A stretch of 28,021 nucleotides of DNA, from IMG/VR virus record IMGVR_UViG_3300000229_000001, positions 1-28,021 of that record; one strand, given 5' to 3'. Source of the DNA: a virus. The translations under genes were made by a program, and so were the position numbers. The notes below the pieces were generated by a model that saw only the letters and a program-made list of their open reading frames with translations, had not been told where the DNA came from and made no database searches. Numbering within the stretch: position 1 is the first letter of the stretch; every line of letters begins with the position of its first letter. Shown here in pieces: positions 1-28,021 of this stretch.

Positions 1-73
1 ACGCTCATTGATGAGCTACTAGAACCCCCACCTGCACTAAAGCTCCCCCCTGTGTTAGCACTACCAAATAATT
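1..73. repeat. 73-bp direct terminal repeat, left copy (identical to 27949-28021)
   Basis: Exact 73/73 identity read directly from the sequence. The repeat lies inside a continuous minus-strand reading frame, so it marks the closure point of a circular or permuted assembly rather than a gene boundary. Confidence 0.95.
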
Positions 74-6830: not shown

Positions 6831-7956
6831 CAGTGTAATACTCCTGCCTTATGTGAGTAGTGGCATATCTAATTGCATCCATAGCATCATCAAATAATTT
6901 GACAGGCTCATCTGTTATGAAGTCCCCTATCTTCTTCCATTTGTAGTTCTCATATTCTCTCCTCAGTGCCTTATCGTCCTGGCATATAACTCCGAAGCTC
7001 TTAAGGTTATCTATCCCTTTCTTTACTACCTTGTTAGCGTTCTGTACATCATAGCCTGCTATGTTCATCTCTTGTATAATTTCAGGCCTAGAGTAATCTG
7101 CTAAGATGGTTACAGTCTGTTCTATACCTAGTGTGCCTAGCTTCTCTATGAGCATAGTAGTGGTGAGGTAGCTCTCATATATAACAGGCTCTACGTATAT
7201 GTCATTATCACAGTAGTACACCCTCATTAAAGCTGTGGGGTGATTATACCCAAAATCTAATCCATATACGTACTTAACAAACTTGCTAGGCCTATGTGCC
7301 ACAAATAACCAGTTACTGTAGATGTTACTCTTAGAGGTAGCCTTCTCCCCCAAGGCATATATTTGATATAGTGCTTCATCCGTTCTCTTCAGATCCTCTA
7401 TCTGTGCCTTAATGCTTTCAGGAAGGAAGGGGTTATCTTTGTACGTGCTCTTTATCTTTACGCTCTCATCTGCAGGTAATTCATACAGCCATGATGCACT
7501 ATCACTTGGGTTATAATCAAAGATAAGCTTATCCTCTGTTCTCATATTAAGCTGAGTAAAATCATCAAAGTACAGCTCATTAGCTTCATTACACCAAGCT
7601 ATATCCCTTTTCCTACCCCTTATCTTTTGCTCATCATCTACTGAAAAAAACTCCACCATAGAGCCATTGGCAAAGGTGTAGATGTGCTCACTCTTATTGT
7701 GTGCCTCCTGCTTATACAGCCCTATATCTTTTAATATCTCTATAAAGTCCCTAAGTACTGTAGCACGTAGAGCAGGGAAGGTTTTGCGTATTACGCTCAC
7801 CACCTTATTATTGTTTTGTAAGCAATAGATTATCATAAGCTGACAAAGGGAGTAAGTCTTAGAGCTCCTGCTTCCACCCTCATTAATAATAAACCTCTTA
7901 TCTCCTAAGATAGCATCATAGTTTTTCTCAAAGATAGCAGTCGCTTTTATATCCAT
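6808..7956 (-). CDS. terL: terminase large subunit (PBSX/Terminase_3-like)
   Basis: Walker A-like GGSRSSKT. Walker B/coupling motif DIAWCNEANE. C-terminal RNaseH-like nuclease acidic motifs GLDFGYNHP, ADYSRPE and DDAMDAIRYA. Confidence 0.9.
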   Translation of the reverse strand: MDIKATAIFEKNYDAILGDKRFIINEGGSRSSKTYSLCQLMIIYCLQNNNKVVSVIRKTFPALRATVLRDFIEILKDIGLYKQEAHNKSEHIYTFANGSMVEFFSVDDEQKIRGRKRDIAWCNEANELYFDDFTQLNMRTEDKLIFDYNPSDSASWLYELPADESVKIKSTYKDNPFLPESIKAQIEDLKRTDEALYQIYALGEKATSKSNIYSNWLFVAHRPSKFVKYVYGLDFGYNHPTALMRVYYCDNDIYVEPVIYESYLTTTMLIEKLGTLGIEQTVTILADYSRPEIIQEMNIAGYDVQNANKVVKKGIDNLKSFGVICQDDKALRREYENYKWKKIGDFITDEPVKLFDDAMDAIRYATTHIRQEYYTDDSYYAF

Positions 7957-8006: not shown

Positions 8007-8417
8007 CTACTTAACTATAGTTACAGTTATAGCAGATATTTTCTCATCACCACTGGTAACATCTGTGTGCTCTTTCAGTGCATTTATTCTTTGGGTGATG
8101 GATGCATTATACTGCCCTACCATTCCACCCTCTATCTGATCCATTCTAATTGCTTCCTCTATGCGTGAGCAGATTGTCGTATAGTCAGAATATCTCCCCC
8201 CTGTATTAGCAAAGTAATCCTGCACACTACACTCTTTATCAGCAGCATAAGTTCTAAACCCTACCTGAGTTAAAGGTCTCTCTAAAGGGATAGCTGTAGC
8301 CTCACCTGTTTTAGTAGATAAGCTGTAAGAATATCTAGGTGTAGACTTACACCAGTTTTTGTATCCCTCAAATAGCTCCCACATTTTTTCAGGGGTTTCT
8401 ATATGCTTTGGTCTCAT
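8007..8417 (-). CDS. terS: terminase small subunit
   Basis: 136 aa, directly upstream of terL. The segment IEGGMVGQYNASITQRINALKEH resembles the conserved small-terminase helix. The N-terminal TPEKMWELFEGYKNWC region looks like a DNA-binding region. Confidence 0.65.
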   Translation of the reverse strand: MRPKHIETPEKMWELFEGYKNWCKSTPRYSYSLSTKTGEATAIPLERPLTQVGFRTYAADKECSVQDYFANTGGRYSDYTTICSRIEEAIRMDQIEGGMVGQYNASITQRINALKEHTDVTSGDEKISAITVTIVK

Positions 8418-8602
8418 TTTTCTTCGTTCTCTACCCCTTTATACTTGGCTTTAGGAGTGCTCTCTTCAAATAGATACCCTAATCCTTTAGATGTATAATA
8501 CTTATGATCTTTAGCAGTCTCTTCTGTTACTGTAAAGCTGGTCTCAAAATTACCATTATACATAGTAATATACTTACCTAGGTGTTCCGTTTTTATCTTC
8601 AT
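8414..8602 (-). CDS. hypothetical protein (62 aa)
   Basis: ORF whose stop overlaps the terS start in an ATGA junction (8414-8417). Confidence 0.45.
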   Translation of the reverse strand: MKIKTEHLGKYITMYNGNFETSFTVTEETAKDHKYYTSKGLGYLFEESTPKAKYKGVENEEK

Positions 8603-8750
8603 ACTGTAGTAAAATTAAAAAAGTGTAATATAATGTTATCCATATTCCTGCGGCCCTACTGGCCCATATATAATCTAGTGTAAACAAAGCTAATCCACAG
8701 CTCAGGGCTGTAAGTAAGCTAAAGATACTAATAACTTGGCTCGGTTTCAT
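8574..8750 (-). CDS. small two-helix membrane protein (58 aa), below the ORF-track cutoff
   Basis: Translated by hand: MKPSQVISIFSLLTALSCGLALFTLDYIWASRAAGIWITLYYTFLILLQYEDKNGTPR, with a TAA at 8576-8574. There are two hydrophobic segments. The ATG is the last base of a late-motif copy. The ORF fills the otherwise noncoding gap 8603-8727. Confidence 0.4.
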   Translation of the reverse strand: MKPSQVISIFSLLTALSCGLALFTLDYIWASRAAGIWITLYYTFLILLQYEDKNGTPR

Positions 8751-9270
8751 ACCTATATTGTAATTTATTTAGGTTTTGTTTCAATTCTTTTATGAGATAG
8801 TAAGCAGATGTATGAGTAATACCAAAATAAATTGCTAAAGACCTTGAGGTGGTATAACCTTTATCGATGTAAGCTTCAAATACTATTTTTTGCACCTGGT
8901 CTTTAATTTCTGATCTATAAATCTCTATAAGTCCCTTATTAAAAGAGTATATCTTATCCTCCCTTATCTTATCTACTAGCTCATCATCCTCTATCCTATC
9001 AGGTGAGTTATCAATTATAGCCGTTATCCTATCGTCTTTATGGCTCTTTGATGTACTCCATAGGATTTGGTATTTAATGGTGTTTAGAAGGTAGCTTTTA
9101 ACCTTATCCTCATCTGCTACATAATCATTTATAGTAAGCACATGAATGTATGAGTTATTTATGACTGTATCAGCGTCTATGTAGCTACCCATCTTAGATA
9201 GAAAGTAGGCAGTATATGCCCTCACCTCAGGGTAAGCCCTGCTAATGTACTGATCTAAGAGCTTTTTCAT
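8728..9270 (-). CDS. sigma-70/ECF-like sigma factor (divergent)
   Basis: 180 aa. Region-2-like segment DTVINNSYIHVL...SYLLNTIKYQILWSTSKSHKD. C-terminal region-4-like HTH YTTSRSLAIYFGITHTSAYYLIKELKQNL. It lies immediately upstream of the packaging genes. Confidence 0.55.
   Translation of the reverse strand: MKKLLDQYISRAYPEVRAYTAYFLSKMGSYIDADTVINNSYIHVLTINDYVADEDKVKSYLLNTIKYQILWSTSKSHKDDRITAIIDNSPDRIEDDELVDKIREDKIYSFNKGLIEIYRSEIKDQVQKIVFEAYIDKGYTTSRSLAIYFGITHTSAYYLIKELKQNLNKLQYRYETEPSY
8750..8781 (-). promoter_or_regulatory. late-motif copy d: AAACA-N17-AATATAGGTA
   Basis: Plus strand has TACCTATATT at 8750-8759 and TGTTT at 8777-8781, exactly 17 nt apart. It lies inside the 3' end of the sigma-like gene. 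The final A of the motif is the A of the ATG of the 58-aa ORF. Confidence 0.5.
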
Positions 9271-9457: not shown

Positions 9458-9684
9458 TCATCTAAAATATAAGCAAGTAGTGCAGCCTGACAAGCAAGTA
9501 TAAAATCAAAGGTAAAAATTATAGTAAGCCAAAAAGCCACACATTTAATACAGCCTAATGCAGAGTGTATATGTATGGCTATTGTGCTACTTGGTCTATA
9601 CTTAAATAAGTAATCAAAGGTTGCTTGTAATGGCTCAAAATTAACAAACCACCACGCTAATGGTACAAGAGCTAGTAATATCAT
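9436..9684 (-). CDS. small membrane protein, DUF1360-like
   Basis: 82 aa with hydrophobic helices. The GCIKCVAFWLTIIF segment resembles the CxxC-W motif of DUF1360 membrane proteins. Confidence 0.45.
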   Translation of the reverse strand: MILLALVPLAWWFVNFEPLQATFDYLFKYRPSSTIAIHIHSALGCIKCVAFWLTIIFTFDFILACQAALLAYILDECLQKLR

Positions 9685-9688
9685 AGCT

Positions 9689-9696
9689 CAAATATA
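9689..9696 (-). promoter_or_regulatory. TATATTTG box (TAnnTTTG type), weak candidate promoter
   Basis: Plus-strand CAAATATA in the 21-nt gap 9685-9705, only 4 nt upstream of the ATG at 9684. This 8-mer is expected a few times by chance in an AT-rich genome. Confidence 0.25.
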
Positions 9697-10222: not shown

Positions 10223-10890
10223 AGTTGTGTTATTAATTGGTTAAAATACTCCCTGCACTGTTCTACCCTCACTTTTATCTGTTCTATCACCTCCTCATCT
10301 CTTTGTATAGTAAATACCTTTACTCTCTTAGCATCAGGGATATTATCAAAGTTGTGCTGGTTCTGCACCTGGTCTCTTAAATCCAGGCTCTCCTCCATTA
10401 GTCCTAGCTTATAGTGGGCGCTCTTAACCTCCTGCTCTACTATTGCATGGGGTGTATTGGTTAGGCAATAACATAACAGACTTTCTGTTTTTCCTGTTAG
10501 CCACATATACCCTTGAAGCTGGTAGTAATAATCTTTATTAGGGCATTCAGTTTCAAACCAAGGAAAAGTGCTACCACTCCATGAATTTTTAACATCTATT
10601 AGCACCTGATCTGTAATTACATCAGGCGTTCCTGTTATCCAATCATTACTATATTGCTCCTCATTCTTAAACAGGAAGCCCTTATCTACCTGTTCCATTA
10701 CAAAACTCAGGCACATATCCTCACACTCATTGCCCTTATCAGTATATTTAGAGCTAAATTCTTTTCTTATCCCATAAACGTGTGCCAAGGCTAATCCTTG
10801 AATAAACGTTTTGGTTGTTTGTGATAGTACCTCCCCTTTAGTTTTTGGGGAAGTCATTACCTTACCTATAGCACTACATCTTATTTTCAT
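10219..10890 (-). CDS. YqaJ/lambda-Exo-like PD-(D/E)xK recombination exonuclease
   Basis: TGTPDVITDQVLIDVKNSW (D...D-x-K core) and YYYQLQGYMWLTG, both typical of YqaJ-type phage exonucleases. ATGA-coupled to the ERF gene. Confidence 0.75.
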   Translation of the reverse strand: MKIRCSAIGKVMTSPKTKGEVLSQTTKTFIQGLALAHVYGIRKEFSSKYTDKGNECEDMCLSFVMEQVDKGFLFKNEEQYSNDWITGTPDVITDQVLIDVKNSWSGSTFPWFETECPNKDYYYQLQGYMWLTGKTESLLCYCLTNTPHAIVEQEVKSAHYKLGLMEESLDLRDQVQNQHNFDNIPDAKRVKVFTIQRDEEVIEQIKVRVEQCREYFNQLITQL

Positions 10891-11438
10891 ATTACAGGTA
10901 TTAATAGGAGTGAATTTATCTGCACTTCTGTAAGGTCAAAGCTTTCCTTTAATTTTTCTACTGTGTACTTTCCATCTGCTATAGCTTTCACTGCCTCAGT
11001 AAATCTTTTATTATCCATTTTAGGCTTTGCAGTAGAAGCCACGTGTCCATCATCATCAGTTGCTTGCAAAGTTAGTAAGCTCTGTATAGTGTATCGCCTA
11101 AAATAAGAAATTTGGCTACCCTGCTTCTGTGCATCTAAGCTAAGGTCCAAAGTCATGCAGCTAGAGATACTAAAGCCAGTGTATATGCATACTATCTGAG
11201 TACATACGCTACCGCCTTCTATTGGCTGTAATAAAAGCAGATCATGCTGTAATAAAATAGGTTCAACGGTCTCTAAGATAGAATTAATATCTGCATAAGA
11301 CTTTTTGAAGTGTGGATTAGTAGCGTTCTTATGTACTTTTCCGATTAGTTGTTTAGCTTTGTGAAGCCTCACATAGAAGGGAGCAGGCTGCTGCTCAACC
11401 TCCTTAGGCTTTACAGCCCTTGTAGTTGTTTTTTCCAT
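10887..11438 (-). CDS. ERF-family single-strand annealing protein
   Basis: NPHFKKSYADINSILETVEPILLQHDL, then QGSQISYFRRYTIQSLL and ATDDDG, matching the ERF pattern NP.F.s.YA.L...Gs..tY.RRY....DDD. Confidence 0.8.
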   Translation of the reverse strand: MEKTTTRAVKPKEVEQQPAPFYVRLHKAKQLIGKVHKNATNPHFKKSYADINSILETVEPILLQHDLLLLQPIEGGSVCTQIVCIYTGFSISSCMTLDLSLDAQKQGSQISYFRRYTIQSLLTLQATDDDGHVASTAKPKMDNKRFTEAVKAIADGKYTVEKLKESFDLTEVQINSLLLIPVI

Positions 11439-11459: not shown

Positions 11460-11467
11460 CAAATATA
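11460..11467 (-). promoter_or_regulatory. GTATATTTG box (TAnnTTTG type), candidate promoter for the ERF/exonuclease block
   Basis: Plus-strand CAAATATA in the 114-nt AT-rich gap 11439-11552, 21 nt upstream of the ERF ATG. It shares the extended AAATATAC core with the boxes at 15020 and 17608. Confidence 0.45.
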
Positions 11468-12038: not shown

Positions 12039-12678
12039 TATTTAATTCTATCCATTCTTTACTGTAATCTCTACCTCTTTCAGCTTGTTGTAATCTATAA
12101 GTAAGGCTCGATATTGGCATTTCACTCTTGTAAATTCTTTCTGCAAGCTCTCTGTCTTTTTCATTTGCTTCGCATAAATATAAGAATTGAGTTCCGATAT
12201 ATTGCTTATAATTATCTTTTCGTTTTCCATAAGTTAGTTCTATAGTTGGTATTTTATACTGTTTAATTTTTATTATATCTTTAGCATCTTTAGCATGTGT
12301 TATATTTACCTCCACTATGCACATTATCTCACCATCACTATCTAAAAATAAGCAATCAGGTCTCATAGAGTAATCAGGTATCTTTGTTTTTATGTATCTA
12401 GCAGCCTCAGCTTCTAGCAATACCTTATCACATGTAATTATTAAATTATCTACTTGCACTGTTTTTTTCTCTTTTAAGTATTTTTGACAGTCTTTATGAA
12501 AAATTATATTAACATCAATATCCTCACCTCTTTTAGTTTTGTAGTGTTTTTTATATTTTTCTCCATGTGCGACTATAATTTCATACTCTTTCTCTTCATA
12601 CCTAAAATAATATGTAATACCTTTAACAGCATCATCAATATGTATGCTATTACCATCTATATCCTCAGCGTATGTCAT
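11989..12678 (-). CDS. CoiA-like PD-(D/E)xK nuclease (tentative)
   Basis: 229 aa. SMRPDCLFLDSDGEIMCIVEVNITHAKD...KIKQYKIPTIEL parallels the CoiA nuclease core (RpDv...iEiQ.S.is...R..Y). Very AT-rich. ATGA-coupled to the primase-helicase stop. Confidence 0.4.
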   Translation of the reverse strand: MTYAEDIDGNSIHIDDAVKGITYYFRYEEKEYEIIVAHGEKYKKHYKTKRGEDIDVNIIFHKDCQKYLKEKKTVQVDNLIITCDKVLLEAEAARYIKTKIPDYSMRPDCLFLDSDGEIMCIVEVNITHAKDAKDIIKIKQYKIPTIELTYGKRKDNYKQYIGTQFLYLCEANEKDRELAERIYKSEMPISSLTYRLQQAERGRDYSKEWIELNNEYKNAFNDKRKQTTN

Positions 12679-14999
12679 ATTTTAGTAATTTTAAAGTATC
12701 TCCCTCCTGCACTTCTACCCTTCTCTAAATTGTATTTCTTAAACTTGCAGTACTCATTAATCATACGTAGATAAGTCTGAGCATTAAGATCGGCCCATCC
12801 CCCTGTGTAAGTCTGAAAGTCCTGAATGGAAGAATTGTTATAGTGTACCACATCTATGGTTACGTTACCCTCTATAACATAATCATAAAATTCCTTATTT
12901 GTAGCTGAGATTAAGCGTTTATCATCTGCATTAATAGCTTTTGATTTAACTAAGCCCATCGATAGGAATTTCTGAAGGTTACTGATCATATAGTTATCAA
13001 AGATTAACCAGTCTAATATAGTCCAGTGATCAAATAACAATCTACCATACTCATCTAGTGGGCTCCTATGAGCATTAAAGTACTGATTAAATTCTATCTC
13101 ATGCCTTCTCCTATCATGGCTACCACCTGCACCACTTATCACATAGTTGGTAGTGATTACTATTTTGGGTGATCGTTCAAATGGGATAAAAATCTCATCT
13201 TTATTTTTTCTATTCACTGTTATTCCTTCTGAGATTAAACTAAATAACTGCTCAAAATCAAAGTTCTTTTTTACATCATCAAAGGCTAGGATCTGACTAT
13301 CTAAATTCACTCTCTGATATACGAAATCACTCTTTTGTGGGTTAAAGCTCTTACCATCTATTTTTACTATATTTCTAATCTTACCTATAGCAGTTAGCAC
13401 TAAGCTCTTACCACTACCTCCATTAGGATTATCATCTATCTCCTGATCATTAAAAATTATTGCCTTCTGATCTGTTTTGTCTTTGTATGTATGCAGTAAA
13501 TATCCTAGTGTAGTCTCTAAAGCATCTACCCTCCGCTCATCATCTGCAGATACTTTGGATACAAAGCTCTTAAAATCATTTTGTATGGTCTTAGTTAGCT
13601 TGTAGTTCCTGTCTATTATTTGCCTATCCCATATATACCCATCAATATCTATATACGGTACTATATCCACCTTATCCTTAGTAATCTTAACTACTCCATT
13701 ACGGTAAGGTATAAAGCTCACATCTTTAGTATCCTGTAACATCATTAACTCAATAGGATCTAGCATTGAAAGGTGCCCATCTGTAAAGAGGTAGGGTGAT
13801 TTACTGCAATAGTTCCATACATCCACCTGCTTCTGCTTCATTAGGTGCCCTAGCACGAAATCCTTTATCTGATCTACTGAGCTGAGGTTTACTTTATTCT
13901 CTACCACCCTAACAAATGTAGATCTCTCTGCTCTTTCAGGGTAGTATTTTTGAAATCCGTATTTATTGAGGAAGTCTCTATACTTCATCGGATCCACAGA
14001 GATTACTTTCTTATCACTAATGGTCCAAAATGTATCCTCACTATTAGCTACCTCTTTTTTCACATCCTCTATCACATCAGGCTTAATATCTAATTGCTTA
14101 GATATATCACCAGGTGTAATTCCTTCCTTTAGTTTAGATTTAACCTTTAAGATAGTTTCTTTATCCTCAAAGTACTTTGTACCTTTATCCGCTCTTTTGT
14201 AAGCAGATCCTACACAGGTATTAATTTCGATTTGAGAAAAGCTTTTATCACTAAATTGGTGCATGTATAGCTTAGCCGTATTTTCACTTATACCATACTC
14301 AGCAAAACAGCTAGCAACTTTAAATACCCAATTATTTCTACCATTAGATATATCTCCATGGTTAAACTTCATTATATTCTCAATAATATTACCTTCATTA
14401 GTCATTGGCAGCACTGGCACCCTTTCAAATGAGCTATGCCCTTTCTCCTCTTCTATAAGAGTAAATACCTCAGCATCTAAATTGATATAAGCATTAGGAT
14501 CATAGCTTTCAAAACATACCCTGCTAACATTACAGCTAGATGCATCAAAGTAATCACTATTAAAAAACTCCTGAAACGCTTTAAACCTTCTCTTGTGTGT
14601 GAATTTATCAGATGCTGGTATCTTAATCACACATTTTAAACCTTTACCTGATGGTGATACAAATATCATAAAGACATAAGGGCATTCAATTAGTCTATCC
14701 TTCTCAGCTTTCATTTCTTTACTGCTAGGATAATCATCAAAATCTAATATACAAAGGCCTGAGTGCTCAATAAGGCCATTATCATTTCTTTCATTAAAGG
14801 TGCCATTAAACATGATAGCTCTAAGGCTGTTTTTTAGGTTGCTGTAGGTAGGATTTTCCTCCTCCATCCCTCTAAGGGTAGTAATTTTTTCTATTAATTC
14901 AGGGTACCCTTCCTTAATTCTATTGTACACATCCACCACATCCTGAGTGTAGGGCGTTTCTTTAGAATTGAAGAGAGATTTAAAGACTGATATATTCAT
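12675..14999 (-). CDS. primase-helicase (BT4734/VirE-N-type primase-like domain plus SF3/D5-like P-loop NTPase)
   Basis: N-terminus: LRAIMFNGTF...HSGLCILDFDD...FVSPSGKGLKCVIKI...SRVCFESYDPNAYIN. C-terminal half: Walker A NPNGGSGKS and Walker B ILAFDDV. Confidence 0.85.
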   Translation of the reverse strand: MNISVFKSLFNSKETPYTQDVVDVYNRIKEGYPELIEKITTLRGMEEENPTYSNLKNSLRAIMFNGTFNERNDNGLIEHSGLCILDFDDYPSSKEMKAEKDRLIECPYVFMIFVSPSGKGLKCVIKIPASDKFTHKRRFKAFQEFFNSDYFDASSCNVSRVCFESYDPNAYINLDAEVFTLIEEEKGHSSFERVPVLPMTNEGNIIENIMKFNHGDISNGRNNWVFKVASCFAEYGISENTAKLYMHQFSDKSFSQIEINTCVGSAYKRADKGTKYFEDKETILKVKSKLKEGITPGDISKQLDIKPDVIEDVKKEVANSEDTFWTISDKKVISVDPMKYRDFLNKYGFQKYYPERAERSTFVRVVENKVNLSSVDQIKDFVLGHLMKQKQVDVWNYCSKSPYLFTDGHLSMLDPIELMMLQDTKDVSFIPYRNGVVKITKDKVDIVPYIDIDGYIWDRQIIDRNYKLTKTIQNDFKSFVSKVSADDERRVDALETTLGYLLHTYKDKTDQKAIIFNDQEIDDNPNGGSGKSLVLTAIGKIRNIVKIDGKSFNPQKSDFVYQRVNLDSQILAFDDVKKNFDFEQLFSLISEGITVNRKNKDEIFIPFERSPKIVITTNYVISGAGGSHDRRRHEIEFNQYFNAHRSPLDEYGRLLFDHWTILDWLIFDNYMISNLQKFLSMGLVKSKAINADDKRLISATNKEFYDYVIEGNVTIDVVHYNNSSIQDFQTYTGGWADLNAQTYLRMINEYCKFKKYNLEKGRSAGGRYFKITKI

Positions 15000-17607: not shown

Positions 17608-17615
17608 CAAATATA
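17608..17615 (-). promoter_or_regulatory. GTATATTTG box (TAnnTTTG type), candidate early promoter
   Basis: Plus-strand CAAATATA in the 184-nt noncoding gap after the terminator. It is the first such signal upstream of the small-ORF operon. Confidence 0.5.
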
Positions 17616-17683: not shown

Positions 17684-17728
17684 ACAAAAAAATACCCCCC
17701 TGCCAAACTAACCAAAGGTGCAGAGGGG
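17684..17728 (-). terminator. rho-independent terminator ending the late operon
   Basis: Minus-strand RNA CCCCUCUGC-(16-nt loop)-GCAGGGGGG forms a 9-bp stem with one G-U pair. It is followed by UAUUUUUUUGUU, 39 nt after the metallophosphoesterase stop. Confidence 0.7.
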
Positions 17729-17766
17729 TTAAGCTAATACATTGGGCGTATTAACCTAGTGCAAAC

Positions 17767-18690: not shown

Positions 18691-19093
18691 ACAATACCAC
18701 TATGCCTGCTATAGCACCATATAAGAACAGCATCCAATTAGTTTTGGACTTTTGTATCTTAGCTTCTTTATATATGTACTTATATTTAAGCACATCCTGC
18801 TTTACTAGTTGTGTTTTGTACCTATACTCAATTCTAGTTTGCCACCTAGTTTTAGGTATATAGATATTCTTAAAAAATATAACGGAGTCTTTGGTTGTTA
18901 TTACCTTTTCCCATATAATGGTGTCATTTATTATTACAGGGATAGAGTCAATGGTCTGTATTTTTATTGTATCACTATCTGTAATCAATTTTAAGCCGTG
19001 TTTAAGAGCCTTTTTATAGTGGTATTGTGCCATTCGTTCGGACGAACACCCAAACATCGTTAAAACGCTTAAAAATACAATTAATTTTTTCAT
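18647..19093 (-). CDS. unimolecular spanin candidate (lipoprotein signal plus C-terminal TM anchor)
   Basis: N-terminus MKKLIVFLSVLTMFGC is a signal peptide ending in Cys (lipobox-like). The C-terminus has a hydrophobic helix, NWMLFLYGAIAGIVVLFVLKFLY. ATGA-coupled directly downstream of the amidase. Confidence 0.5.
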   Translation of the reverse strand: MKKLIVFLSVLTMFGCSSERMAQYHYKKALKHGLKLITDSDTIKIQTIDSIPVIINDTIIWEKVITTKDSVIFFKNIYIPKTRWQTRIEYRYKTQLVKQDVLKYKYIYKEAKIQKSKTNWMLFLYGAIAGIVVLFVLKFLYKLYNPFK

Positions 19094-19770
19094 AAGTTCT
19101 GTAGCATTGCTATCATTCTAGGGCACGGATAGATGTCTGATTTATCTTTTCTCACACTATTGTGTGTAAATATACCATTTTCTCCCCTCAAAGCACGTTT
19201 ATCAATATCAAAGATGCTAGCATAGTAATCTCTAGGGATGTTATACTGATCACAAAGGTAGACTAGAAGCTGTCTAGTGCTCTCTATTTGTGCATCCGTG
19301 TATTTTTGCCAATAGATATGACCTTTATATGGTTTGTCTAATATTGTAAGCTGAGTATAATCTACTTTACCACCTACATAGTTATAGTAGTAGCCATTTC
19401 TTTTAGTTAGTGGGCCAAAGTTACATATTTCTATCCCTACAGATAACCTATCTAAACCCCTATAAGTTACTCCTACCTCCTCAAATACTTCCTGTTTTAA
19501 TCCCAAATGGTACGCCCAATTTTTAGAGCTAAAGCATTGCACTATTGTGCCTTTGGAGCCTATGATAAAAGCAGTTGCTACTTTGCCCACCTTTTGATTA
19601 AAGTATTTAGCTACTGATATAGCATCTGGTCCACCTGCAGTATGGTGCAAGTAGATTTGTTTCTTGTCCGTGAGCTCGTCTATGTATTGATCTTTAGATA
19701 ATCGGTGTTGAACTATCCTGGTTATGTCTAAGTCCATTGATGTCTGTTTTAATTTCTTTAGCTCTTGCAA
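19090..19770 (-). CDS. N-acetylmuramoyl-L-alanine amidase endolysin (Amidase_2/PGRP type)
   Basis: IYLHHTAG, SVGIEICNFG, YTDAQIESTRQLLVYLCDQYNIP and IFTHNSVRKDKSDIYPCP match the Amidase_2 zinc-amidase pattern. Alternative start at Met-12 (19737). Confidence 0.85.
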   Translation of the reverse strand: MQELKKLKQTSMDLDITRIVQHRLSKDQYIDELTDKKQIYLHHTAGGPDAISVAKYFNQKVGKVATAFIIGSKGTIVQCFSSKNWAYHLGLKQEVFEEVGVTYRGLDRLSVGIEICNFGPLTKRNGYYYNYVGGKVDYTQLTILDKPYKGHIYWQKYTDAQIESTRQLLVYLCDQYNIPRDYYASIFDIDKRALRGENGIFTHNSVRKDKSDIYPCPRMIAMLQNL

Positions 19771-20185: not shown

Positions 20186-20748
20186 AGTATTAGTATGCTG
20201 TTATTATATCCATTTTCTCTAAGGTTACCACACATACCAGTGCAAGTAGTTTGAAATTGAGTTATGCAAGAGCAATTGTTAAACATAGGCCTAAGATCAG
20301 TATCCATGTTAGTGGCAGATATGAATATAGGAAATAAATTTTTATTAGTTAGTAGCCATCTGATTAATCTCTGCTCAAAGAAACTAGCTTTTTGTGCATA
20401 GTGTTCCATACCAAAGGCTACCTCTGAACGTGATACGCTAGCAGAGTAATCACCTGACTGTGTTTGTAATCCTTTATTTTTTAATTGATATGTTAATCCA
20501 AAAACCGCATCCTCTGCACTTCTCCATGCTATCACTGGCTGTATAAACTCCACTAAATCTATCTCATCAGGTGTAAGTGCCTGAGCATTGTAAGCTGTTA
20601 GCATGTGATTGTAGAAAGTAGTGCCCAAAATAGGCTGTATCCTTAGTGCTGCCTGAGTAGCTATGTATGGAGTAACATCTGTTACATCTACATTCGCAGT
20701 TATAGGAGTATTAACTTTTAAGTATGTTTCTGTTATGAAGTATAGCAT
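20182..20748 (-). CDS. possible head-tail connector/adaptor protein with Cys-rich C-terminus
   Basis: 188 aa, directly after the portal. The N-terminus (ITETYLKVNTPITANVDVTDVTPYIATQAALRIQPILG) resembles gp6-type connector openings. C-terminal segment NNCSCITQFQTTCTGMCGN. Confidence 0.3.
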   Translation of the reverse strand: MLYFITETYLKVNTPITANVDVTDVTPYIATQAALRIQPILGTTFYNHMLTAYNAQALTPDEIDLVEFIQPVIAWRSAEDAVFGLTYQLKNKGLQTQSGDYSASVSRSEVAFGMEHYAQKASFFEQRLIRWLLTNKNLFPIFISATNMDTDLRPMFNNCSCITQFQTTCTGMCGNLRENGYNNSILIL

Positions 20749-22085
20749 TATACAGGGGTTGTTGTTTCGGTTACTACTATAGCAGCTGCTGCACTCTGAG
20801 TCATATCTCCACCCTCAATTGGTGGCAAAGAAGCCAACGCTCTCACCTCATTTATAGTCATAGTTTCAAGAACCTTATTAGCTACCAATGGACTGAGCGA
20901 GTTTATCGCATCATTTACTTTTGAGCTTTCAGCCTCTAGCTCTACTATATTTTCATTAATTATCTGAAAGTTATTGATAGTAAATTCTGCAGGTATCTTA
21001 GCGATTGTTAAGAGCTCATTAAAGATAGCCATTACACAGCCTCTTAGCTCCATTACTACATTCTTTTCAAATATCACATATGCCTGCTTAATATCTGCAC
21101 CTCCTCCAAGGCTTCCTGTAGTTCTTACTCCCATTAAGATAGGATCAATAGTGTGAGCAAAACAAATCTGCTCTGTATTAAGCTGTGAGGCTTCCTGAAA
21201 GAGACTATCATTACCATTTGTAGGTAGGCTTTCTATCTTAGGTAACTGATCCTGTGAATTAGCAAAAAATGCCACAGCTTTACCAGCGTTTACAGCTCCC
21301 TTAAGCTTATTTAGAGTTTCCTTAATCATGTGCTTTTCCTCCTCTGATTGCGGTCTCTTAGGAAACATCATAGCAAAAGATGGAAATACACTATTTTGAA
21401 TATTGCTCTTAGCAAAGTAGGAAAGCTCCCCACTAAGGAAGGCAAAGTTAAGTGCTGAGGTGTATTGTGGTAGTGAGTAGTAATCCTGCCCTAGTGATTT
21501 AATCTCATAGCAATATAATTGCTCATAATCAGAGCATGCTACGTGATAAGGTTTGATTTCTTTTACATCTATATTCGTACTCCAGTCTTCACATAGATAG
21601 TACATATCTTTAAACCTAGATATCCTTACTTTTTCAGGTGATATATTTTCTATTTTGACTAATTTCTTAGTGCTATCAAAATAAAGTTTAAAATATACCC
21701 TATTATGTACAATCAATTGCTTAGTAACAGCTTTAACTATATGCTTTAGTTTTGTTTTCCTTTCAAACATATACAACTCTAATTTTTCAGGCGTTGTTAA
21801 TTTGTCGGTTGCTAAAGCAAAACCGCCACCTATCACTGCATTAGTTTTGTAATCACATATTGCACCATGAAGTGGGCTAGAATAATACATTTGATTAAGT
21901 AGCTCAGGATAAAGATTATCATTACCAAATCTTACCCACATATTAGTAGCGTATCTACCATTTACATAAGGCAAAGTTAGATTACCTTTTCCTACAGGTA
22001 AAAATGGAGTACTAAAAGATTGATAACCTTCCACCATTTCAGGAGCCGTACTCTCTTTCTTAAATAAATTATTATACCATGCCAT
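20748..22085 (-). CDS. portal protein (PBSX-type)
   Basis: 445 aa. YYSLPQYTSALNFAFLSGELSYFAKSNIQNSVFPSFAMMFP...GAVNAGKAVAFF...ICFAHTIDPILMG fits the portal pattern Y..P.y.sal......f....l.Ng..Ps....NAGK. Confidence 0.85.
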   Translation of the reverse strand: MAWYNNLFKKESTAPEMVEGYQSFSTPFLPVGKGNLTLPYVNGRYATNMWVRFGNDNLYPELLNQMYYSSPLHGAICDYKTNAVIGGGFALATDKLTTPEKLELYMFERKTKLKHIVKAVTKQLIVHNRVYFKLYFDSTKKLVKIENISPEKVRISRFKDMYYLCEDWSTNIDVKEIKPYHVACSDYEQLYCYEIKSLGQDYYSLPQYTSALNFAFLSGELSYFAKSNIQNSVFPSFAMMFPKRPQSEEEKHMIKETLNKLKGAVNAGKAVAFFANSQDQLPKIESLPTNGNDSLFQEASQLNTEQICFAHTIDPILMGVRTTGSLGGGADIKQAYVIFEKNVVMELRGCVMAIFNELLTIAKIPAEFTINNFQIINENIVELEAESSKVNDAINSLSPLVANKVLETMTINEVRALASLPPIEGGDMTQSAAAAIVVTETTTPV

Positions 22086-22087
22086 AG

Positions 22088-22438
22088 TTAATCGTATATT
22101 GAGGTGCCTACTGGCCCACTTACCACCATTCTACCCTCTTCTATCACCACACCTGTGGACTGTGCAATAGTTAAAGGTAGTACATAGGGTACTGAGCTCT
22201 CATAAATTTGATATACAAACTGCCCTTGTAATAAAGTAATATCTACAGGCTCATTAAGTACAAAGAGATTGTACCTTTCAGGCCATAAGCTAGCATCAGC
22301 AGTAGTAAATAGCTGAGGTAGACTAGTAGTATTCATTTCATTAGTAAAAGCAAATAGATAATGAGGGGTAGATACAGTAGTAACCTCTGTTAAGGTTAGC
22401 ACTACCTGGTTAATTACTCCCTGTTCAATGTATATCAT
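22088..22438 (-). CDS. hypothetical virion-module protein (116 aa)
   Basis: The ORF starts exactly at the end of late-motif copy a. It lies 2 nt upstream of the portal gene. No family recognised. Confidence 0.45.
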   Translation of the reverse strand: MIYIEQGVINQVVLTLTEVTTVSTPHYLFAFTNEMNTTSLPQLFTTADASLWPERYNLFVLNEPVDITLLQGQFVYQIYESSVPYVLPLTIAQSTGVVIEEGRMVVSGPVGTSIYD

Positions 22439-22469
22439 ACCTATATTATATGTTTACTTCAAAATGTTT
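22438..22469 (-). promoter_or_regulatory. late-motif copy a: AAACA-N17-AATATAGGTA
   Basis: Plus strand has TACCTATATT at 22438-22447 and TGTTT at 22465-22469, 17 nt apart. It lies in true intergenic DNA just after the terminator at 22476-22501. The final A of the motif is the A of the ATG at 22438. Confidence 0.55.
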
Positions 22470-22475
22470 AGAAAT

Positions 22476-22501
22476 AAAAAAGCCCCACTAATTGCAGGGC
22501 T
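22476..22501 (-). terminator. rho-independent terminator after the 179-aa gene
   Basis: Minus-strand RNA AGCCCUGC-AAUUA-GUGGGGCU forms an 8-bp stem that includes two G-U pairs. It is followed by UUUUUAUUU. Confidence 0.55.
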
Positions 22502-23111: not shown

Positions 23112-24056
23112 TTAAGCGTAGTAAACGATATCTGTTGGATTAACAAAGCTAAATCCTACTTTCATATTAGCACGTGTTCTGATAATTGGCTCAGCAACAG
23201 TATCTGCTAAGTTTACAGCACGTAAGTCAGAAGAGTCACCCTCACCATCAAAAGCATAAATAAGGTTATCTTTCAAAGTGATTACAAATGTATCATTAGA
23301 CATACCTGGACAAGTAACTATTTTAATACCTAAATAAGTCAATGCCAAATCTTGTGTGATAAATGCATTCGTATTACCTGAAGCTACACCTAATCGGTAA
23401 ATATTCACCAATTGAGTAGGCAAGTAGATACGTAAGTCAGCAGTTCTAGAAGCAATAGCAGCAGGAACTAAAGCGAAAGCCGCTTCTAATTTAGCACCTA
23501 ATCCACCCACTCCTGAGAATGTAGTGATAGCACCTGTACCACCATTGATAGCATCACCAGCTACAACTGAAGCAGCTAATCCTTTCTCGTAACCATCACA
23601 CAAAGCAAGTTGTGGATTAGCAGATAGGATATCACCTTGCCATCTTAATGCTTCAATTTGTCCTGCAATAGCATTAGCCATCTCGGACCAGTAGAAGTTA
23701 AAGAAAGAAGCTACTGAGAAATCACCGTTAGAACCTTGTGCCATTTGTAAAGATACAAAAGACTGCTCTAAGTCAAATTGGCAAATTTGAGCCATTGCAG
23801 AAAGAGCACATACATCTACTTCATGAGAGCTTAAGTCGTCTGTGTTATGGTTAGAGAAGCTACAAGGGCTAGCAGCTAGTAAGCCTGTGCCAAAAGTAAC
23901 CGTTCCGATTTTAGTTTTGTACTTGATACCAGGTAAAGTACGGAAGTTATCAGGAATATCACTACCTGAAAGGTAAGCTTGCGCGTAGAACGCCTCAGCG
24001 TTCGGTGCTAATAATGCAGAAGCATCAATGTTTAAATCAAATTTTAGTTTTCTCAT
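23112..24056 (-). CDS. major capsid protein (HK97-fold, PBSX XkdG-like context)
   Basis: 314 aa, immediately after the XkdF-like protease/scaffold gene. Ala/Gly-rich, with locally higher GC and a distinct codon choice. Followed by a hairpin. Confidence 0.75.
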   Translation of the reverse strand: MRKLKFDLNIDASALLAPNAEAFYAQAYLSGSDIPDNFRTLPGIKYKTKIGTVTFGTGLLAASPCSFSNHNTDDLSSHEVDVCALSAMAQICQFDLEQSFVSLQMAQGSNGDFSVASFFNFYWSEMANAIAGQIEALRWQGDILSANPQLALCDGYEKGLAASVVAGDAINGGTGAITTFSGVGGLGAKLEAAFALVPAAIASRTADLRIYLPTQLVNIYRLGVASGNTNAFITQDLALTYLGIKIVTCPGMSNDTFVITLKDNLIYAFDGEGDSSDLRAVNLADTVAEPIIRTRANMKVGFSFVNPTDIVYYA

Positions 24057-24071: not shown

Positions 24072-25049
24072 TTATTGGTTGTTAAATTTATTGAATTTAC
24101 TTAATTTTTGCTGTACACTCATCTTTACAGCCTCTTCCATAACCTCCTCTTCTGTTTCTACTACTAGAGACTCTTCCAACTGATTTTTTAAATCAGCTAT
24201 CATAGCCACAAGTGCATCCACTTGTTCAGTAATTAATGGGCGTACTATCTCTAGTATTGCCTCAGCATCCATAGTAGGATCTACAGCCATAGTTTCCTCT
24301 TCTACTACTTCCTCTTCTTCTTCTACTACTGTATCAGCCATAGCTTCCTCTTCTACTACTACTTCCTCTTCTCTAATTTCAGTGATTTCACCATCTACTA
24401 CGACATAGATTTTGCCGTCAATTAAGTGTTCACCATCAGGTAATTTATTCATATTATTTAGTTTAAGTTGTTGCTGTTCTTTGAGCTTCATACCAAGATA
24501 ACCCTCAATTGAAAAGCCTACCTGCCCATCTGCTACCAGTTGTGCATAGTATTCTTTATCTGTTACCTGAGCTGTTACCATTAGTGTGCCTTCAGGTACT
24601 TCTATCCCAAAACTAGAATAAGCCTTATCCTCTTTGGGTGTATCTACTATCCATGCTTCTAATACATAAGCAGGTACAGTTTTCTCCGTATCATGCTCTA
24701 GGTTAAAAAGATCCTTATTACTCATATCACGCATAAACTTTGCATGAATTTTCTCTATCTCTTCTATGGTAAACTTAACATAGTACTCTTTGTTCTCTTC
24801 ATCATCCTTTCGGTATATCTCCATAGGGATAAGAGCAGGTGCTACTATTCGATACTTAACATCATCTGTAAATATCATGGGCTTAACCTGGCTATTAAAA
24901 GCCATACCCATAACTTTGATAGCAGGCGTGGATGTAAAAGCTATTTGTTCTATACCTAAGTCCTCCCCATTTTCAGAGTATTCAGGATCAATAGTAATTT
25001 TGTAAACAGGTAGATTATCTTTTGCCATACCTATATTATAATAATTCAT
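24072..25049 (-). CDS. XkdF-like prohead protease / scaffolding fusion protein
   Basis: The N-terminal ~190 aa (IAFTSTPAIKV...YRIVAPALIPM...FNLEHD...GFSIEGY) resembles the PBSX XkdF domain. The C-terminal part is an acidic E/V-rich helical tail. The true start is probably Met-8 at 25028, where the late motif ends in the ATG. Confidence 0.6.
   Translation of the reverse strand: MNYYNIGMAKDNLPVYKITIDPEYSENGEDLGIEQIAFTSTPAIKVMGMAFNSQVKPMIFTDDVKYRIVAPALIPMEIYRKDDEENKEYYVKFTIEEIEKIHAKFMRDMSNKDLFNLEHDTEKTVPAYVLEAWIVDTPKEDKAYSSFGIEVPEGTLMVTAQVTDKEYYAQLVADGQVGFSIEGYLGMKLKEQQQLKLNNMNKLPDGEHLIDGKIYVVVDGEITEIREEEVVVEEEAMADTVVEEEEEVVEEETMAVDPTMDAEAILEIVRPLITEQVDALVAMIADLKNQLEESLVVETEEEVMEEAVKMSVQQKLSKFNKFNNQ
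24285..24372. repeat. imperfect ~33-36-bp direct duplication inside the scaffold tail
   Basis: AGCCATAGTTTCCTCTTCTACTACTTCCTCTTC (24285-24317) versus AGCCATAGCTTCCTCTTCTACTACTACTTCCTCTTC (24336-24371). They encode EEEVVEEETMA and EEEVVVEEEAMA. Confidence 0.7.
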
Positions 25050-25059
25050 ATATTTGTAA
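25028..25059 (-). promoter_or_regulatory. late-motif copy b: TTACA-N17-AATATAGGTA
   Basis: Plus strand has TACCTATATT at 25028-25037 and TGTAA at 25055-25059, 17 nt apart. The final A of the motif is the A of Met-8 of the protease/scaffold ORF. The upstream box overlaps the plus-strand TATATTTG box. Confidence 0.5.
25049..25056 (+). promoter_or_regulatory. TATATTTG box (TAnnTTTG type), candidate promoter of the plus-strand cassette
   Basis: Exact TATATTTG, 14 nt upstream of the ATG at 25071. It is the only candidate signal in the short divergent gap. Confidence 0.45.
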
Positions 25060-25070
25060 AAAAATTAACT

Positions 25071-25613
25071 ATGGTAACTATTTTAGGAAGGGAGATCCCC
25101 AACAAAATTGAAGAGCTGACTATTGAGCAGTTTGAAGCAATTACAGATATTAACAATAATAAAGAGATAGATCCTGTGGATAGGCATCTGCAAATCTTTG
25201 AGTACTTAGGCATCCCTGAAAAGGAATTTTTTGACTTTGATATTGCAGATTTTATTGATATTGTTAAAGAGTTTAATACTACACCTGAGCTTACTAATAG
25301 TATGGAGCCTGTAGGCACACTAGAGCTAGATGGATTTACCTATACTGCAGAGCTTAAGCTAACAGTACGTGAAACAAAGCTAATAGAAAAGATAGCCATC
25401 CACAAACAAAAGGGATACATATCTGATATGATGGCTGTTATGTTCAAAGCGGATCACCTAACTAATGCAGAGCACTATACAGAAGCTCACCTTAAGCTAA
25501 AGTCTAAGCACATTAGGAAGTTGAAAGCGGAGTTGTGCATCCCTTACATTATGTTTGTGGCTAACAAGGTAAAAAAACAAGTAGAAAATGTACCTACCGA
25601 AGCAGTGGAGTGA
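25071..25613 (+). CDS. acidic helical protein, paralogue A (tail-assembly-chaperone-like, G-like?)
   Basis: 180 aa on the opposite strand. Its N-terminal ~70 aa are paralogous to the next ORF (IPNKIEELTIEQFEAITDIN / PEKEFFDFDIADF versus LPKQWSEVTVEQFMEIAEID / PESIEDMDIDEL). Confidence 0.4.
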   Translation: MVTILGREIPNKIEELTIEQFEAITDINNNKEIDPVDRHLQIFEYLGIPEKEFFDFDIADFIDIVKEFNTTPELTNSMEPVGTLELDGFTYTAELKLTVRETKLIEKIAIHKQKGYISDMMAVMFKADHLTNAEHYTEAHLKLKSKHIRKLKAELCIPYIMFVANKVKKQVENVPTEAVE

Positions 25614-26325
25614 AGTAACTGTAGAGCAGTTTATGGAGATTGCTGAGATAGACAAAGAGCTAGGGGCTTATCATTATAATAGTGAGATACTTTCTATCAT
25701 CACAGATGAGTCCCCTGAGTCTATTGAGGATATGGATATAGATGAGCTGAAAGGATACATAGATGAGTGCAAGTGGGCCCTCTCACAGCCATCTAATAAA
25801 TATAAGCATGAACTCTTAGGTATGAAAGTTAAGCCCTTTAATAAATTGTGCCTTTATGAGTACATAGACCTGGACTATTATTTCACTAATAACTACATAA
25901 CTAACTTAGCTAATATCTGTGGTATTTTATATAGACAAACAAAAGTAAATGAGTGGGGGGAGGAAGTGATAGAGCCTTACGAATATGATTGCACTATCAG
26001 AGCTGAGAAGTTTTTAGATTTACCTATCACAGATGTGTATGGTCTCATTAATGAGTTTCTAAAGTTTAGGGATAATTTTCTTAACACCTATAAAAACTTA
26101 TTCCAAGGGGAGGAGCTAGCAGAATTAACAACAGCAGAGAAGGCAGGGCTTACACCTGATGAGCTGAAAGAGGAGGAGGATAGTAAGAAAGATAGTAAGT
26201 GGAGCTGGGAGCGTATGATATACGGCCTGTGTAATAATGATCTTACCAAGTCTGATAAGATAGGAGGGTTACCCCTTACCTATGTTTTTAATATGATGGG
26301 GATGAAAAAAGAGTTAGACATCTAA
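25588..26325 (+). CDS. acidic helical protein, paralogue B with C-terminal extension (GT-like chaperone?)
   Basis: 245 aa. It overlaps paralogue A by 26 nt in the +1 frame. The C-terminal WSWERMIYGLCNNDLTKSDKIGGLPLTYVFNMMGM resembles the W.W..l..gL......i..l.l.....m.G motif of GTA-type tail assembly chaperones. Confidence 0.4.
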   Translation: MYLPKQWSEVTVEQFMEIAEIDKELGAYHYNSEILSIITDESPESIEDMDIDELKGYIDECKWALSQPSNKYKHELLGMKVKPFNKLCLYEYIDLDYYFTNNYITNLANICGILYRQTKVNEWGEEVIEPYEYDCTIRAEKFLDLPITDVYGLINEFLKFRDNFLNTYKNLFQGEELAELTTAEKAGLTPDELKEEEDSKKDSKWSWERMIYGLCNNDLTKSDKIGGLPLTYVFNMMGMKKELDI

Positions 26326-27408: not shown

Positions 27409-27440
27409 TACCTATATTATATTATTAAATCCATTTGTTT
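27409..27440 (-). promoter_or_regulatory. late-motif copy c: AAACA-N17-AATATAGGTA
   Basis: Plus strand has TACCTATATT at 27409-27418 and TGTTT at 27436-27440, 17 nt apart. It fills the 31-nt gap between the 144-aa and 213-aa genes. Confidence 0.5.
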
Positions 27441-27873: not shown

Positions 27874-28021
27874 AATTCTGCTGATTTATTTATTCGATTA
27901 ATTTTATCTTGCACTGATGTTACTTGAGTTTCACTTACTATAGCTGTTACGCTCATTGATGAGCTACTAGAACCCCCACCTGCACTAAAGCTCCCCCCTG
28001 TGTTAGCACTACCAAATAATT
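27870..28021 (-). CDS. tape measure protein, C-terminal end (same gene as 1-2273; 27949-28021 duplicates 1-73)
   Basis: The reading frame is preserved across the junction, because 27948 is divisible by 3. The protein ends ...SMSVTAIVSETQVTSVQDKINRINKSAEL, with a TGA at 27872-27870. Confidence 0.75.
   Translation of the reverse strand, partial: LFGSANTGGSFSAGGGSSSSSMSVTAIVSETQVTSVQDKINRINKSAEL
27949..28021. repeat. 73-bp direct terminal repeat, right copy (identical to 1-73)
   Basis: Exact identity read directly. Confidence 0.95.

Follow-up and report, generated by a model that had tools for sequence, protein, structure and literature searches.

Among the described systems, Salmonella phage 7-11 and E. 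coli phage phiEco32 are the closest mechanistic precedents for the locus analysed here, and the Thermus phages YS40 and Lalka27a the closest for its whole design. Phage 7-11 encodes the sigma factor gp47 and has eight late promoters of the form GTAAtg-N16-aCTA (PMC8948821), and phiEco32 encodes the sigma factor gp36, whose promoters are of the form tAATGTAtA (PMC8948821, PMC12276001). The late promoters of YS40 and Lalka27a share the consensus TAGGGT and a conserved C at -25 (bioRxiv 10.64898/2026.04.20.719267). Cellular sigma factors of the extracytoplasmic function type (ECF, group 4) use promoters with AAC in the -35 element and a spacer of 16–18 bp (bioRxiv 10.1101/2020.06.23.168245), and promoters of the primary sigma factor of Bacteroidota carry TTTG at -33 and TAnnTTTG at -7 (PMC9723704, PMC7366714; the former is the source for where the -7 box lies with respect to the start site). 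The subject of this analysis is a bipartite motif, WWACA followed after 17 nucleotides (nt) by the 10-mer AATATAGGTA, in a viral sequence of 28,021 nt (IMG/VR record IMGVR_UViG_3300000229_000001, positions 1 to 28,021; hereafter the window), together with the sigma-like protein of 180 amino acids (aa) encoded at 8728–9270 on the minus strand. We consider it likely that the five copies of this motif make up the complete set of late promoters of the phage, dependent on a phage sigma factor and giving leaderless or near-leaderless mRNAs.

The 10-mer occurs at 6629, 8750, 22438, 25028 and 27409, only on the minus strand, that is, in the sense orientation of the genes, nearly all of which lie on that strand. 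Shuffling of the sequence with preserved dinucleotides gave an expected count of 0.32, and none of 100 shuffles contained five or more copies. When two mismatches were allowed, 86 occurrences were found against 83 expected, which is the background level; the signal therefore consists of five exact copies rather than of a diffuse compositional bias. The upstream box lies exactly 17 nt before the 10-mer in all five copies, as AAACA in four and as TTACA (25055–25059) in the fifth. The combined pattern WWACA-N17-AATATAGGTA retrieved the same five sites and no others, even at one mismatch, with an expected count of 0.14, and given a WWACA rate of 0.0108 per position on the gene-sense strand, the probability of finding the box at one fixed offset in five of five copies is about 1.5e-10. 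At 22438, 25028 and 8750 the motif runs into the start codon, its last base serving as the A of an ATG (a distance of 0 nt), and the ATG follows after 1 nt at 27409 and after 10 nt at 6629. The original prediction had claimed five minus-strand copies at these positions, a chance expectation below one, an AAACA or TTACA box at exactly 17 nt in every copy, gene-sense orientation and distances of 0–10 nt to an ATG, and the counts bear out each of these points. The conserved block proved to be one base longer on its 5' side than the 10-mer, reading TAATATAGGT(A/G). A search of the available literature on the motif found no relevant paper. A candidate sixth site at 5151, upstream of a 958-aa gene (TTACA-N18-AATATAGTCA-ATG, two mismatches), was rejected: it is not conserved in relatives and simply forms part of the 491-aa coding sequence.

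The first and last 73 bp of the window (1–73 and 27949–28021) are identical, which indicates a closed circular assembly and a complete genome of about 27.9 kb, so that the five sites are the entire complement of the motif. The sequence probably belongs to a small freshwater phage of a Bacteroidota host. Pointing to such a host are the GC content of 36% and the lack of Shine–Dalgarno sequences before the genes, the large terminase, whose closest isolated relatives infect Parabacteroides and Bacteroides (33% identity), the primase, for which all matches from host-named phages are from Flavobacterium, Maribacter, Polaribacter or Bacteroides phages, and the enrichment of TAnnTTTG (61 occurrences against 32.5 expected). 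Searches of isolated phages by megablast and tblastn found no close relatives; IMG/VR contains hundreds of relatives, all uncultured.

These relatives allowed the conservation of the motif to be followed. Across 160 related loci the exact 10-mer was counted 256 times in sense and 6 times in antisense orientation. In the sequences extracted upstream of orthologues of the five downstream genes, both boxes are retained even where the downstream protein is only ~40–60% identical to that of the window. At non-coding sites the frequency of the majority base is 0.98–1.0 in the downstream box, 0.75–1.0 in the upstream box and 0.63–0.78 in the spacer; taken over the three non-coding sites of the clade, it is 0.98–0.99 in TAATATAGGT, 0.75–1.0 in the upstream box and 0.69–0.78 in the spacer. 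Most contexts keep a spacing of 17, a minority of lineages having 16 or 18; the upstream box reads AAACA, GAACA or TAACA at most sites, and TTACA at the protease site of the window and its close relatives. Within the clade of the window, 242 of 252 bipartite sites precede members of the five orthologous gene families, and most of the others precede genes swapped into the same position; the presence of the motif before orthologues in related phages, on which the original prediction had in advance agreed to stand or fall, is thus established. Of 174 distinct contexts, 140 (~80%) have the start codon directly at the end of the block, and where orthologues of the 116-aa gene start with GTG, as some do, a purine is kept at that position. 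Insertions of 1–3 or 11–12 nt between the box and the ATG (counted from the T that ends the core, p8) leave the spacing between the boxes unchanged, which ties the downstream box to the upstream box and not to the ATG.

Each site heads a late operon, and the coordinates that follow are on the minus strand. At 22438–22469 (AAACA) the final base of the motif doubles as the A of the ATG of a 116-aa gene, the first of an operon that includes the portal gene (20748–22085) and continues through the lysis genes; the motif ends in ATG or GTG in 39 of 40 distinct relative contexts. Third-position variation in codons 2–5 and an in-frame stop just upstream show that this start is real. The copy at 25028–25059 (TTACA) sits between divergently oriented genes; it is followed by an operon made up of the protease/scaffold (S78-type, 24072–25028), major capsid and 179-aa genes, and ends with the first A of the protease start codon. 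This copy had been placed at Met-8 of the protease open reading frame (ORF), and that methionine is the true start (MAKDN...), since the ATG upstream of it at 25049 is not conserved in relatives. The copy at 8750–8781 (AAACA) falls inside the sigma-like gene, in its last 18 codons, and ends on the A of the ATG of a 58-aa ORF (8574–8750), which precedes the genes of the small (8007–8417) and large (6808–7956) terminase subunits in one operon; spacing of 17 and a start codon at the motif end were found here in 49 of 49 distinct contexts. This ORF, noted earlier as unannotated, begins MKPSQVISIFSLLTALS... and encodes a membrane-like protein with a hydrophobic N-terminus; its conservation in 78 related loci at 41–93% identity shows that it is a real gene.

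The two remaining copies are separated from their start codons. At 6629–6660 (AAACA), 10 nt separate the motif from the ATG (6618) of the 491-aa gene, and the operon headed by this copy continues with the 958-aa, tape-measure-like and 144-aa genes. The motif directly abuts the ATG in 23 of 43 distinct relative contexts of this site, so that the 10-nt gap can be recognised as an insertion in the clade of the window. At 27409–27440 (AAACA) a single nucleotide lies between the motif and the ATG (27407) of the 213-aa gene, which forms a late unit with a 150-aa gene; the AAACA box of this copy is overlapped by the TAA stop of the upstream 144-aa gene, and the site is kept in relatives, whose copies mostly stop directly at the ATG. 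Both gaps are insertions confined to the clade of the window. Of the operon blocks proposed earlier between the sites, the position of the motif at the operon heads and the presence of a tape-measure-like ORF hold, whereas the label "tail" for the 491-aa and 958-aa proteins is not backed by any family match; neither protein gave a polymerase signal, and both are encoded within the late structural operon. Some relatives have lost the gene that follows the counterpart of the 27409 promoter, or carry another in its place (MANNTLQQ...), with the promoter retained (L073 at 4126, L120 at 19166, L135 at 12198 and L145 at 11859). Since the promoter stays while the gene after it changes, late promoters coincide with boundaries of module exchange.

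The arrangement of terminators and host-type promoters fits this division. An intrinsic terminator at 22481–22501 (minus strand, -13.7 kcal/mol, with a T-run) closes the capsid operon directly upstream of the 22438 motif; the hairpin and T-run, ~10 nt upstream of the AAACA box, are kept in all relatives, and the terminator hairpin that had been noticed immediately before this copy is thus real. A second one (17686–17729, minus strand; stem CCCCTCTGC...GCAGGGGGG, then T7; -19 kcal/mol) ends the portal-to-lysis late operon just before the early region. In view of these two terminators and of the divergent intergenic region, transcription must restart at the motif, and each late site is the sole conserved candidate promoter for its operon. 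The exact form TATATTTG of the enriched Bacteroidota primary-sigma box occurs at four positions between genes, always correctly oriented and ahead of a gene start: at 17608–17615 (minus strand), where the early/replication region begins; at 11460–11467 (minus strand), upstream of the gene of the ERF recombinase (10887–11438); at 9689–9696 (minus strand), where it drives the 82-aa, 71-aa and sigma-like genes; and at 25049–25056 (plus strand), before a plus-strand gene pair (25071–26325). Early units begin at the boxes at 17608, 11460 and 9689, the sigma-like gene being the last of the early/middle unit from 9689, and late units begin at 8750, 6629, 27409, 25028 and 22438; no motif site was found in the 9-kb early region. 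None of the five late sites has TAnnTTTG or TTTG at either host position, TAnnTTTG at -12 to -5 being absent in five of five, and they share only TA and one T with the host -7 box. The motif is therefore, as originally claimed, unlike the housekeeping promoter of Bacteroidota, which is found upstream of the early genes instead.

Two of the host-type boxes have unusual surroundings. At 9684–9696 (minus strand) TATATTTG is followed by AGCT and then by the ATG of the 82-aa gene, so that a leaderless mRNA is predicted from this host-sigma promoter as well, given that the box would lie at -12 to -5, as reported for flavobacteria. The plus-strand box at 25049–25056 shares sequence with the spacer of the minus-strand late motif, and two back-to-back promoters would thus lie within ~35 bp.

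The proposed trans-acting factor is the 180-aa protein. Its AlphaFold2 model (mean predicted local distance difference test score, pLDDT, 80) consists of two helical domains with a disordered acidic linker at residues 77–93. A Foldseek search against the PDB returned almost only sigma-70-family proteins, mostly of the ECF type (SigL, SigH, sigma-E, AlgU, SigW and SigK, with 6dv9_F, 5zx2_F, 6jbq_F and 1or7 among the hits), at weak E-values of 5e-3 to 1, which are expected because the relative orientation of the two domains differs. The C-terminal helix-turn-helix domain matches sigma-4 (TM-score 0.65 and root-mean-square deviation ~3 Å against the isolated sigma-4 domain structure 3hug), and the N-terminal domain, modelled alone (pLDDT 88), has a TM-score of 0.69 against a sigma chain and of 0.46–0.55 against sigma-2 structures on -10 DNA. 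The hits in BFVD are phage sigma factors. One search returned 210 homologues of the protein and another 277 clusters of them at 50% identity, all unannotated. Among 77 diverse family members, 33 matched TIGR02937 (NCBIfam, sigma70-ECF superfamily; best E-value 4e-8) and 10 matched the Bacteroidota-specific ECF model Sig70_bacteroi1. On the basis of the fold matches and of the TIGR02937 hits we conclude that the protein is, at the family level, a very divergent member of the ECF-type sigma superfamily, the window protein itself falling below curated cut-offs. The sigma-like protein with which the original prediction had credited the phage is accordingly sigma-like by fold and by superfamily profile. 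At the 3' end of its gene (8728–8781, minus strand), the conserved C-terminal LQYRYE is encoded by the motif itself; clades with a different C-terminus of the sigma-like protein (…IQDENQ…) lack this motif copy in the coding sequence.

A scheme can be proposed in which, upon infection by this presumably lytic phage of ~27.9 kb, the host RNA polymerase with the host primary sigma would read the TATATTTG-type promoters first. These would drive the early and replication genes, with the 180-aa protein as the last product of its unit. Acting as a divergent ECF-type sigma with sigma-2 and sigma-4 domains, this protein would redirect the host core polymerase to (A/T/G)AACA - 17±1 bp - TAATATAGGT, where sigma-4 would read the AAC-containing upstream box and sigma-2 the start of the downstream block. 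We infer that transcription most likely starts at the purine after ...GGT. In most copies this purine is the first base of the start codon, A or sometimes G, and the first gene of each late operon would therefore be translated from a leaderless or near-leaderless mRNA. The late-promoter reading was supported by every computable test. Two boxes separated by a fixed-length spacer of free sequence, with AAC in the upstream box, are what ECF promoters have, and AAC-N17-TAAT fits their 16–18 bp spacers. With a start at the A of the ATG, AAC would lie at -30 to -28 and TAAT at -10 to -7, and the rule of a pyrimidine at -1 and a purine at +1 would be followed.

A number of observations weigh against this reading. 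As regards the protein, its full-length score against TIGR02937 is E=0.019, or 14.6 bits with a cut-off of 42.9; Pfam and PHROG searches of the window protein gave no hit; hmmsearch and profile searches of PDB sequences returned nothing significant, only generic helix-turn-helix hits; hhalign against Escherichia coli RpoE placed region 2 in register, but at E=0.026; and the RinA model TIGR01636 matched 7 of the 77 family members (best 7.5e-4), which makes an activator role possible. As regards the promoter, a start at the A of the ATG puts the invariant block at -10 to -1 and the core shared across clades, TATA, at -7 to -4, that is, 3–5 bp downstream of the -12 to -7 elements known from characterised sigma-70-family promoters; only TAAT (-10 to -7) would overlap the canonical -10 window, and the would-be positions -12 and -11 are poorly conserved. 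In phiEco32 and 7-11 the start lies 6–9 bp beyond the element (PMC8948821), and the same rule would put it here inside the coding sequence, which is excluded by the coding constraint on codons 2–5. Leaderless mRNAs are, moreover, rare in Bacteroidota (5.5% in F. psychrophilum; in B. thetaiotaomicron, ~3.7% of mRNAs have a leader of less than 10 nt), and against such values of 3.7–5.5% a phage with four of five late operons headed in this way stands out in the phylum.

Other placements of the elements were considered. With AATATA or TATAGG as the -10 element and canonical spacers of 17–19 bp, the start would fall 2–5 nt inside the coding sequence; these placements were rejected because codons 2–5 vary synonymously and an in-frame stop lies just upstream. 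Since codons 2–5 are under coding constraint, the mRNA must include the start codon at the motif end. The element may consist of a short -10 followed by a conserved discriminator/initiation region, perhaps because a leaderless mRNA needs a start precise to a single nucleotide. Alternatively, a leader of 2–3 nt may result from initiation slightly further upstream, as at the G of TATA|GG. The bolder proposal that the divergent phage sigma fixes initiation at a single nucleotide, so that the head genes are expressed from leaderless mRNAs with a 5'-AUG as a deliberate strategy, is in our view rather doubtful; the leaderless state itself is what the position of the motif suggests.

Apart from a phage-sigma promoter, several explanations of the conserved sites can be put forward. 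The motif could be a promoter read by an alternative (ECF) sigma of the host, or by the host primary sigma retargeted by a phage activator at AAACA near -30, the latter resembling the appropriation by MotA/AsiA in T4 or the RinA/ArpU late activators encoded just upstream of terS. The AAACA box, with its centre near -29, does occupy the position of a MotA box; the matches to the RinA model and the sub-threshold sigma score of the window protein agree with an activator; and the 180-aa gene lies just upstream of the small terminase gene, as is reported for RinA-type activators (PMC3152322). On comparison with RinA/ArpU, the gene is two small ORFs upstream of the small terminase gene with one motif copy between them, and four other operons are headed by the motif too. 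We nevertheless regard this explanation as unlikely, because the fold matches span sigma-2 and sigma-4 over the full length, TIGR02937 outdoes the RinA model both in members matched (33 against 7) and in best E-value (4e-8 against 7.5e-4), the motif has no TAnnTTTG box, which an appropriated host primary sigma would still need, and cellular genomes show no regulon use of the motif. It is a good deal less probable that the block acts in RNA, as a translation-initiation signal or a processing site 5' of the start codon in transcripts that begin upstream. Such a role would account for the block abutting the start codon in ~80% of distinct contexts, and AGGT is complementary to part of the anti-Shine–Dalgarno sequence; in distant clades, an abundant motif, AAACACGAA, is found inside 5' untranslated regions (UTRs) near ATGs. 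However, the distance from the block to the ATG is flexible (0, 1–3 or 11–12 nt) and that to AAACA is fixed. A gap of 0 nt between AGGT and ATG is incompatible with Shine–Dalgarno function, which Bacteroidota do not use and for which the other genes of the phage have no sequence. There is also no obvious upstream transcript, given the conserved terminator before the box at 22438 and the antisense genes upstream of 25028, and the motif regions have neither predicted RNA structure (z-scores -0.1 to +1.7) nor a match in Rfam.

The asymmetry of the motif, its orientation with transcription and its place at gene boundaries would suit an operator bound by a regulatory protein, like the asymmetric "stoperators" known from cluster A mycobacteriophages, or else a conserved module-boundary sequence promoting recombination between phages, and so would the swapping of the gene after the 27409 site in some relatives with the motif left in place. 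Yet two boxes with AAC upstream and a spacer of 17±1 are the geometry of a sigma factor and not of a single operator, neither an integrase nor a repressor was seen in the phage genome, each of the operons has no conserved candidate promoter apart from its site, and module exchange at promoters, being a consequence of promoter conservation, is compatible with a phage-sigma promoter as well; we hold the operator or boundary explanation to be highly improbable. The lowest likelihood, so small as to be nearly negligible, attaches to a promoter for a T7-like single-subunit RNA polymerase of the phage, with the G of TATA|GG as the first transcribed base. TATAGG resembles positions -4 to +2 of T7-class promoters and the base there is always a purine (G or A) across clades, but no RNA polymerase gene was found among the proteins of the complete genome, where the 774-aa protein is a primase (BT4734-like, 12675–14999), and the stretch corresponding to the continuous conservation of T7-class promoters from -17 to +6 is here free spacer.

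Three sister clades were compared with the window, and in them the motif varies in concert with the sigma-like protein. In a clade whose sigma-like protein is 47–50% identical to that of the window, AATATAAGTA stands at the three orthologous sites covered by its loci, and the pattern AAACA-N17-CAATATAAGTATG occurs 32 times in sense and never in antisense orientation. A clade at 37% sigma-like identity has AAACA-N17-ATTATAAGAT-ATG and ATTATGAGTAG-ATG with the same spacing, and one at 51–58% has AATATATATA at one site. In the clade L161–L166, AAACA-N17-AATATATATA with a 12-nt leader was found upstream of one gene; a variant TAATATAG-ATG of this sister clade, with the ATG 2 nt closer, was dropped, as it lies inside an 89-aa coding sequence. 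Motif copies within one genome change together, as expected if one trans-acting factor reads all sites; general sequence divergence alone could also contribute to the change. The shift of the motif across clades, alongside divergence of the protein, is indirect evidence that transcription from the sites depends on it. In other sister clades (L187–L215 and L167–L169) the 9-mer AAACACGAA is present in ~5 copies per locus, 139 in sense and 0 in antisense orientation in 357 kb, usually 2–12 nt upstream of an ATG (for example, L190 at 10918 and L167 at 3599) and once in the 5' UTR that follows a host-type TATATTTG box. A role in translation initiation or as a second promoter signal is possible.

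A scan of 185,579 species genomes (596 Gb) for the motif gave 26 single hits, roughly the level of chance, of which only three are fragments of this phage group, mis-binned in unrelated metagenome-assembled genomes (MAGs). The motif is thus specific to the phages and does not define a cellular regulon. The phage-group contigs L222, L224 and L232 sit in MAGs labelled Rhodobacteraceae, Phycisphaerales and Candidatus Fonsibacter; these labels are probably binning artefacts and no guide to the host.

Compared with the described systems, the phage of the window would resemble 7-11 in having a very divergent phage sigma with region 4 and a few bipartite phage-specific promoters with a fixed spacer of ~16–17 bp, which lie upstream of late blocks, early genes being on host-sigma promoters. 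The box sequences of the two phages are unrelated, however, and their sigma proteins have no detectable sequence similarity; the hosts are Enterobacteria and Bacteroidota, respectively, and 7-11 mRNAs have leaders, whereas here the block reaches the start codon. As in phiEco32, a phage sigma would replace the host sigma for middle and late genes, and tAATGTAtA resembles TAATATAgg. Unlike here, where an AAC box stands at fixed spacing, the phiEco32 element is a single box centred at -11.5, gp36 being without region 4, and gp36 needs the cofactor gp79, of which no homologue was identified in the window. With YS40 and Lalka27a the phage shares a phage-specific late consensus and tolerance of GTG, and in those phages the transcripts are mostly leaderless, starting from the A or G of the start codon; the differences are that their hosts belong to the Deinococcota, a phylum rich in leaderless mRNAs, that their specificity factor is not identified as a phage sigma, and that the sequence of the element and its distance to the start are not the same.

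The features of cellular ECF promoters are reportedly set out by Staron 2009 and Rhodius 2013. The likeness to them would lie in the two-domain sigma of ~180 aa, the AAC box, the rigid spacer and the pyrimidine(-1)/purine(+1) start, and cellular ECF leaderless promoters are enriched for A at +1. In contrast to them, the downstream element TAATATAGGT is AT-rich and 10 bp long, not CGT- or GTC-like, the sigma-like gene has neither an anti-sigma partner nor autoregulation, and the protein is below family cut-offs. The late promoters of phage T4 depend on gp55, gp33 and the sliding clamp; they have TATAAATA at -10 and no -35 box, and gp55 lacks sigma-4. An AT-rich, phage-specific late element read by a small phage sigma-like protein would be common to both phages, but the motif studied here has an upstream box at fixed spacing and the 180-aa protein a sigma-4-like C-terminal domain, and the coupling to replication through the clamp, known for T4, is not indicated here. 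From the primary-sigma promoters of the host the late sites are distinct, the host type being present at the four TATATTTG sites upstream of early genes and not at the late ones. Late promoters dependent on a phage sigma and leaderless late mRNAs of phages thus both have published precedents, and what is described here is a known strategy in a new phage group.

Other genes recognised in the window are those of a capsid-like structural protein (23112–24056), an amidase (19090–19770) and an HNH endonuclease. The tape-measure-like ORF (>757 aa, minus strand) has its start near 2274, spans the circular junction and ends near 27878. The plus-strand pair in the late region comprises two acidic genes of 180 aa and 245 aa with no family match, and its 3' end overlaps the 150-aa minus-strand gene by 12 nt.

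The features that set this system apart are a sigma family without a Pfam model, promoters fused to start codons in a phylum that does not use Shine–Dalgarno sequences, and a promoter embedded in the 3' end of the sigma-like gene. The late-promoter reading would give a complete and testable transcription map of abundant uncultured freshwater Bacteroidota phages, consisting of host-type early promoters, a sigma factor, five late promoters and two terminators, and it would assign a function to an unannotated protein family of ~277 clusters at 50% identity. If initiation were indeed fixed at a single nucleotide, leaderless late messages could be privileged, for example via 70S initiation, during the shut-down of host translation or transcription, and AAACACGAA would be a second, alternative phage-specific expression signal of the sister clades. 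The pair of sigma and promoter would be orthogonal to the unusual primary sigma of Bacteroidota and a possible genetic tool where standard expression signals fail, and these phages would offer a natural system for leaderless translation in bacteria without Shine–Dalgarno sequences.

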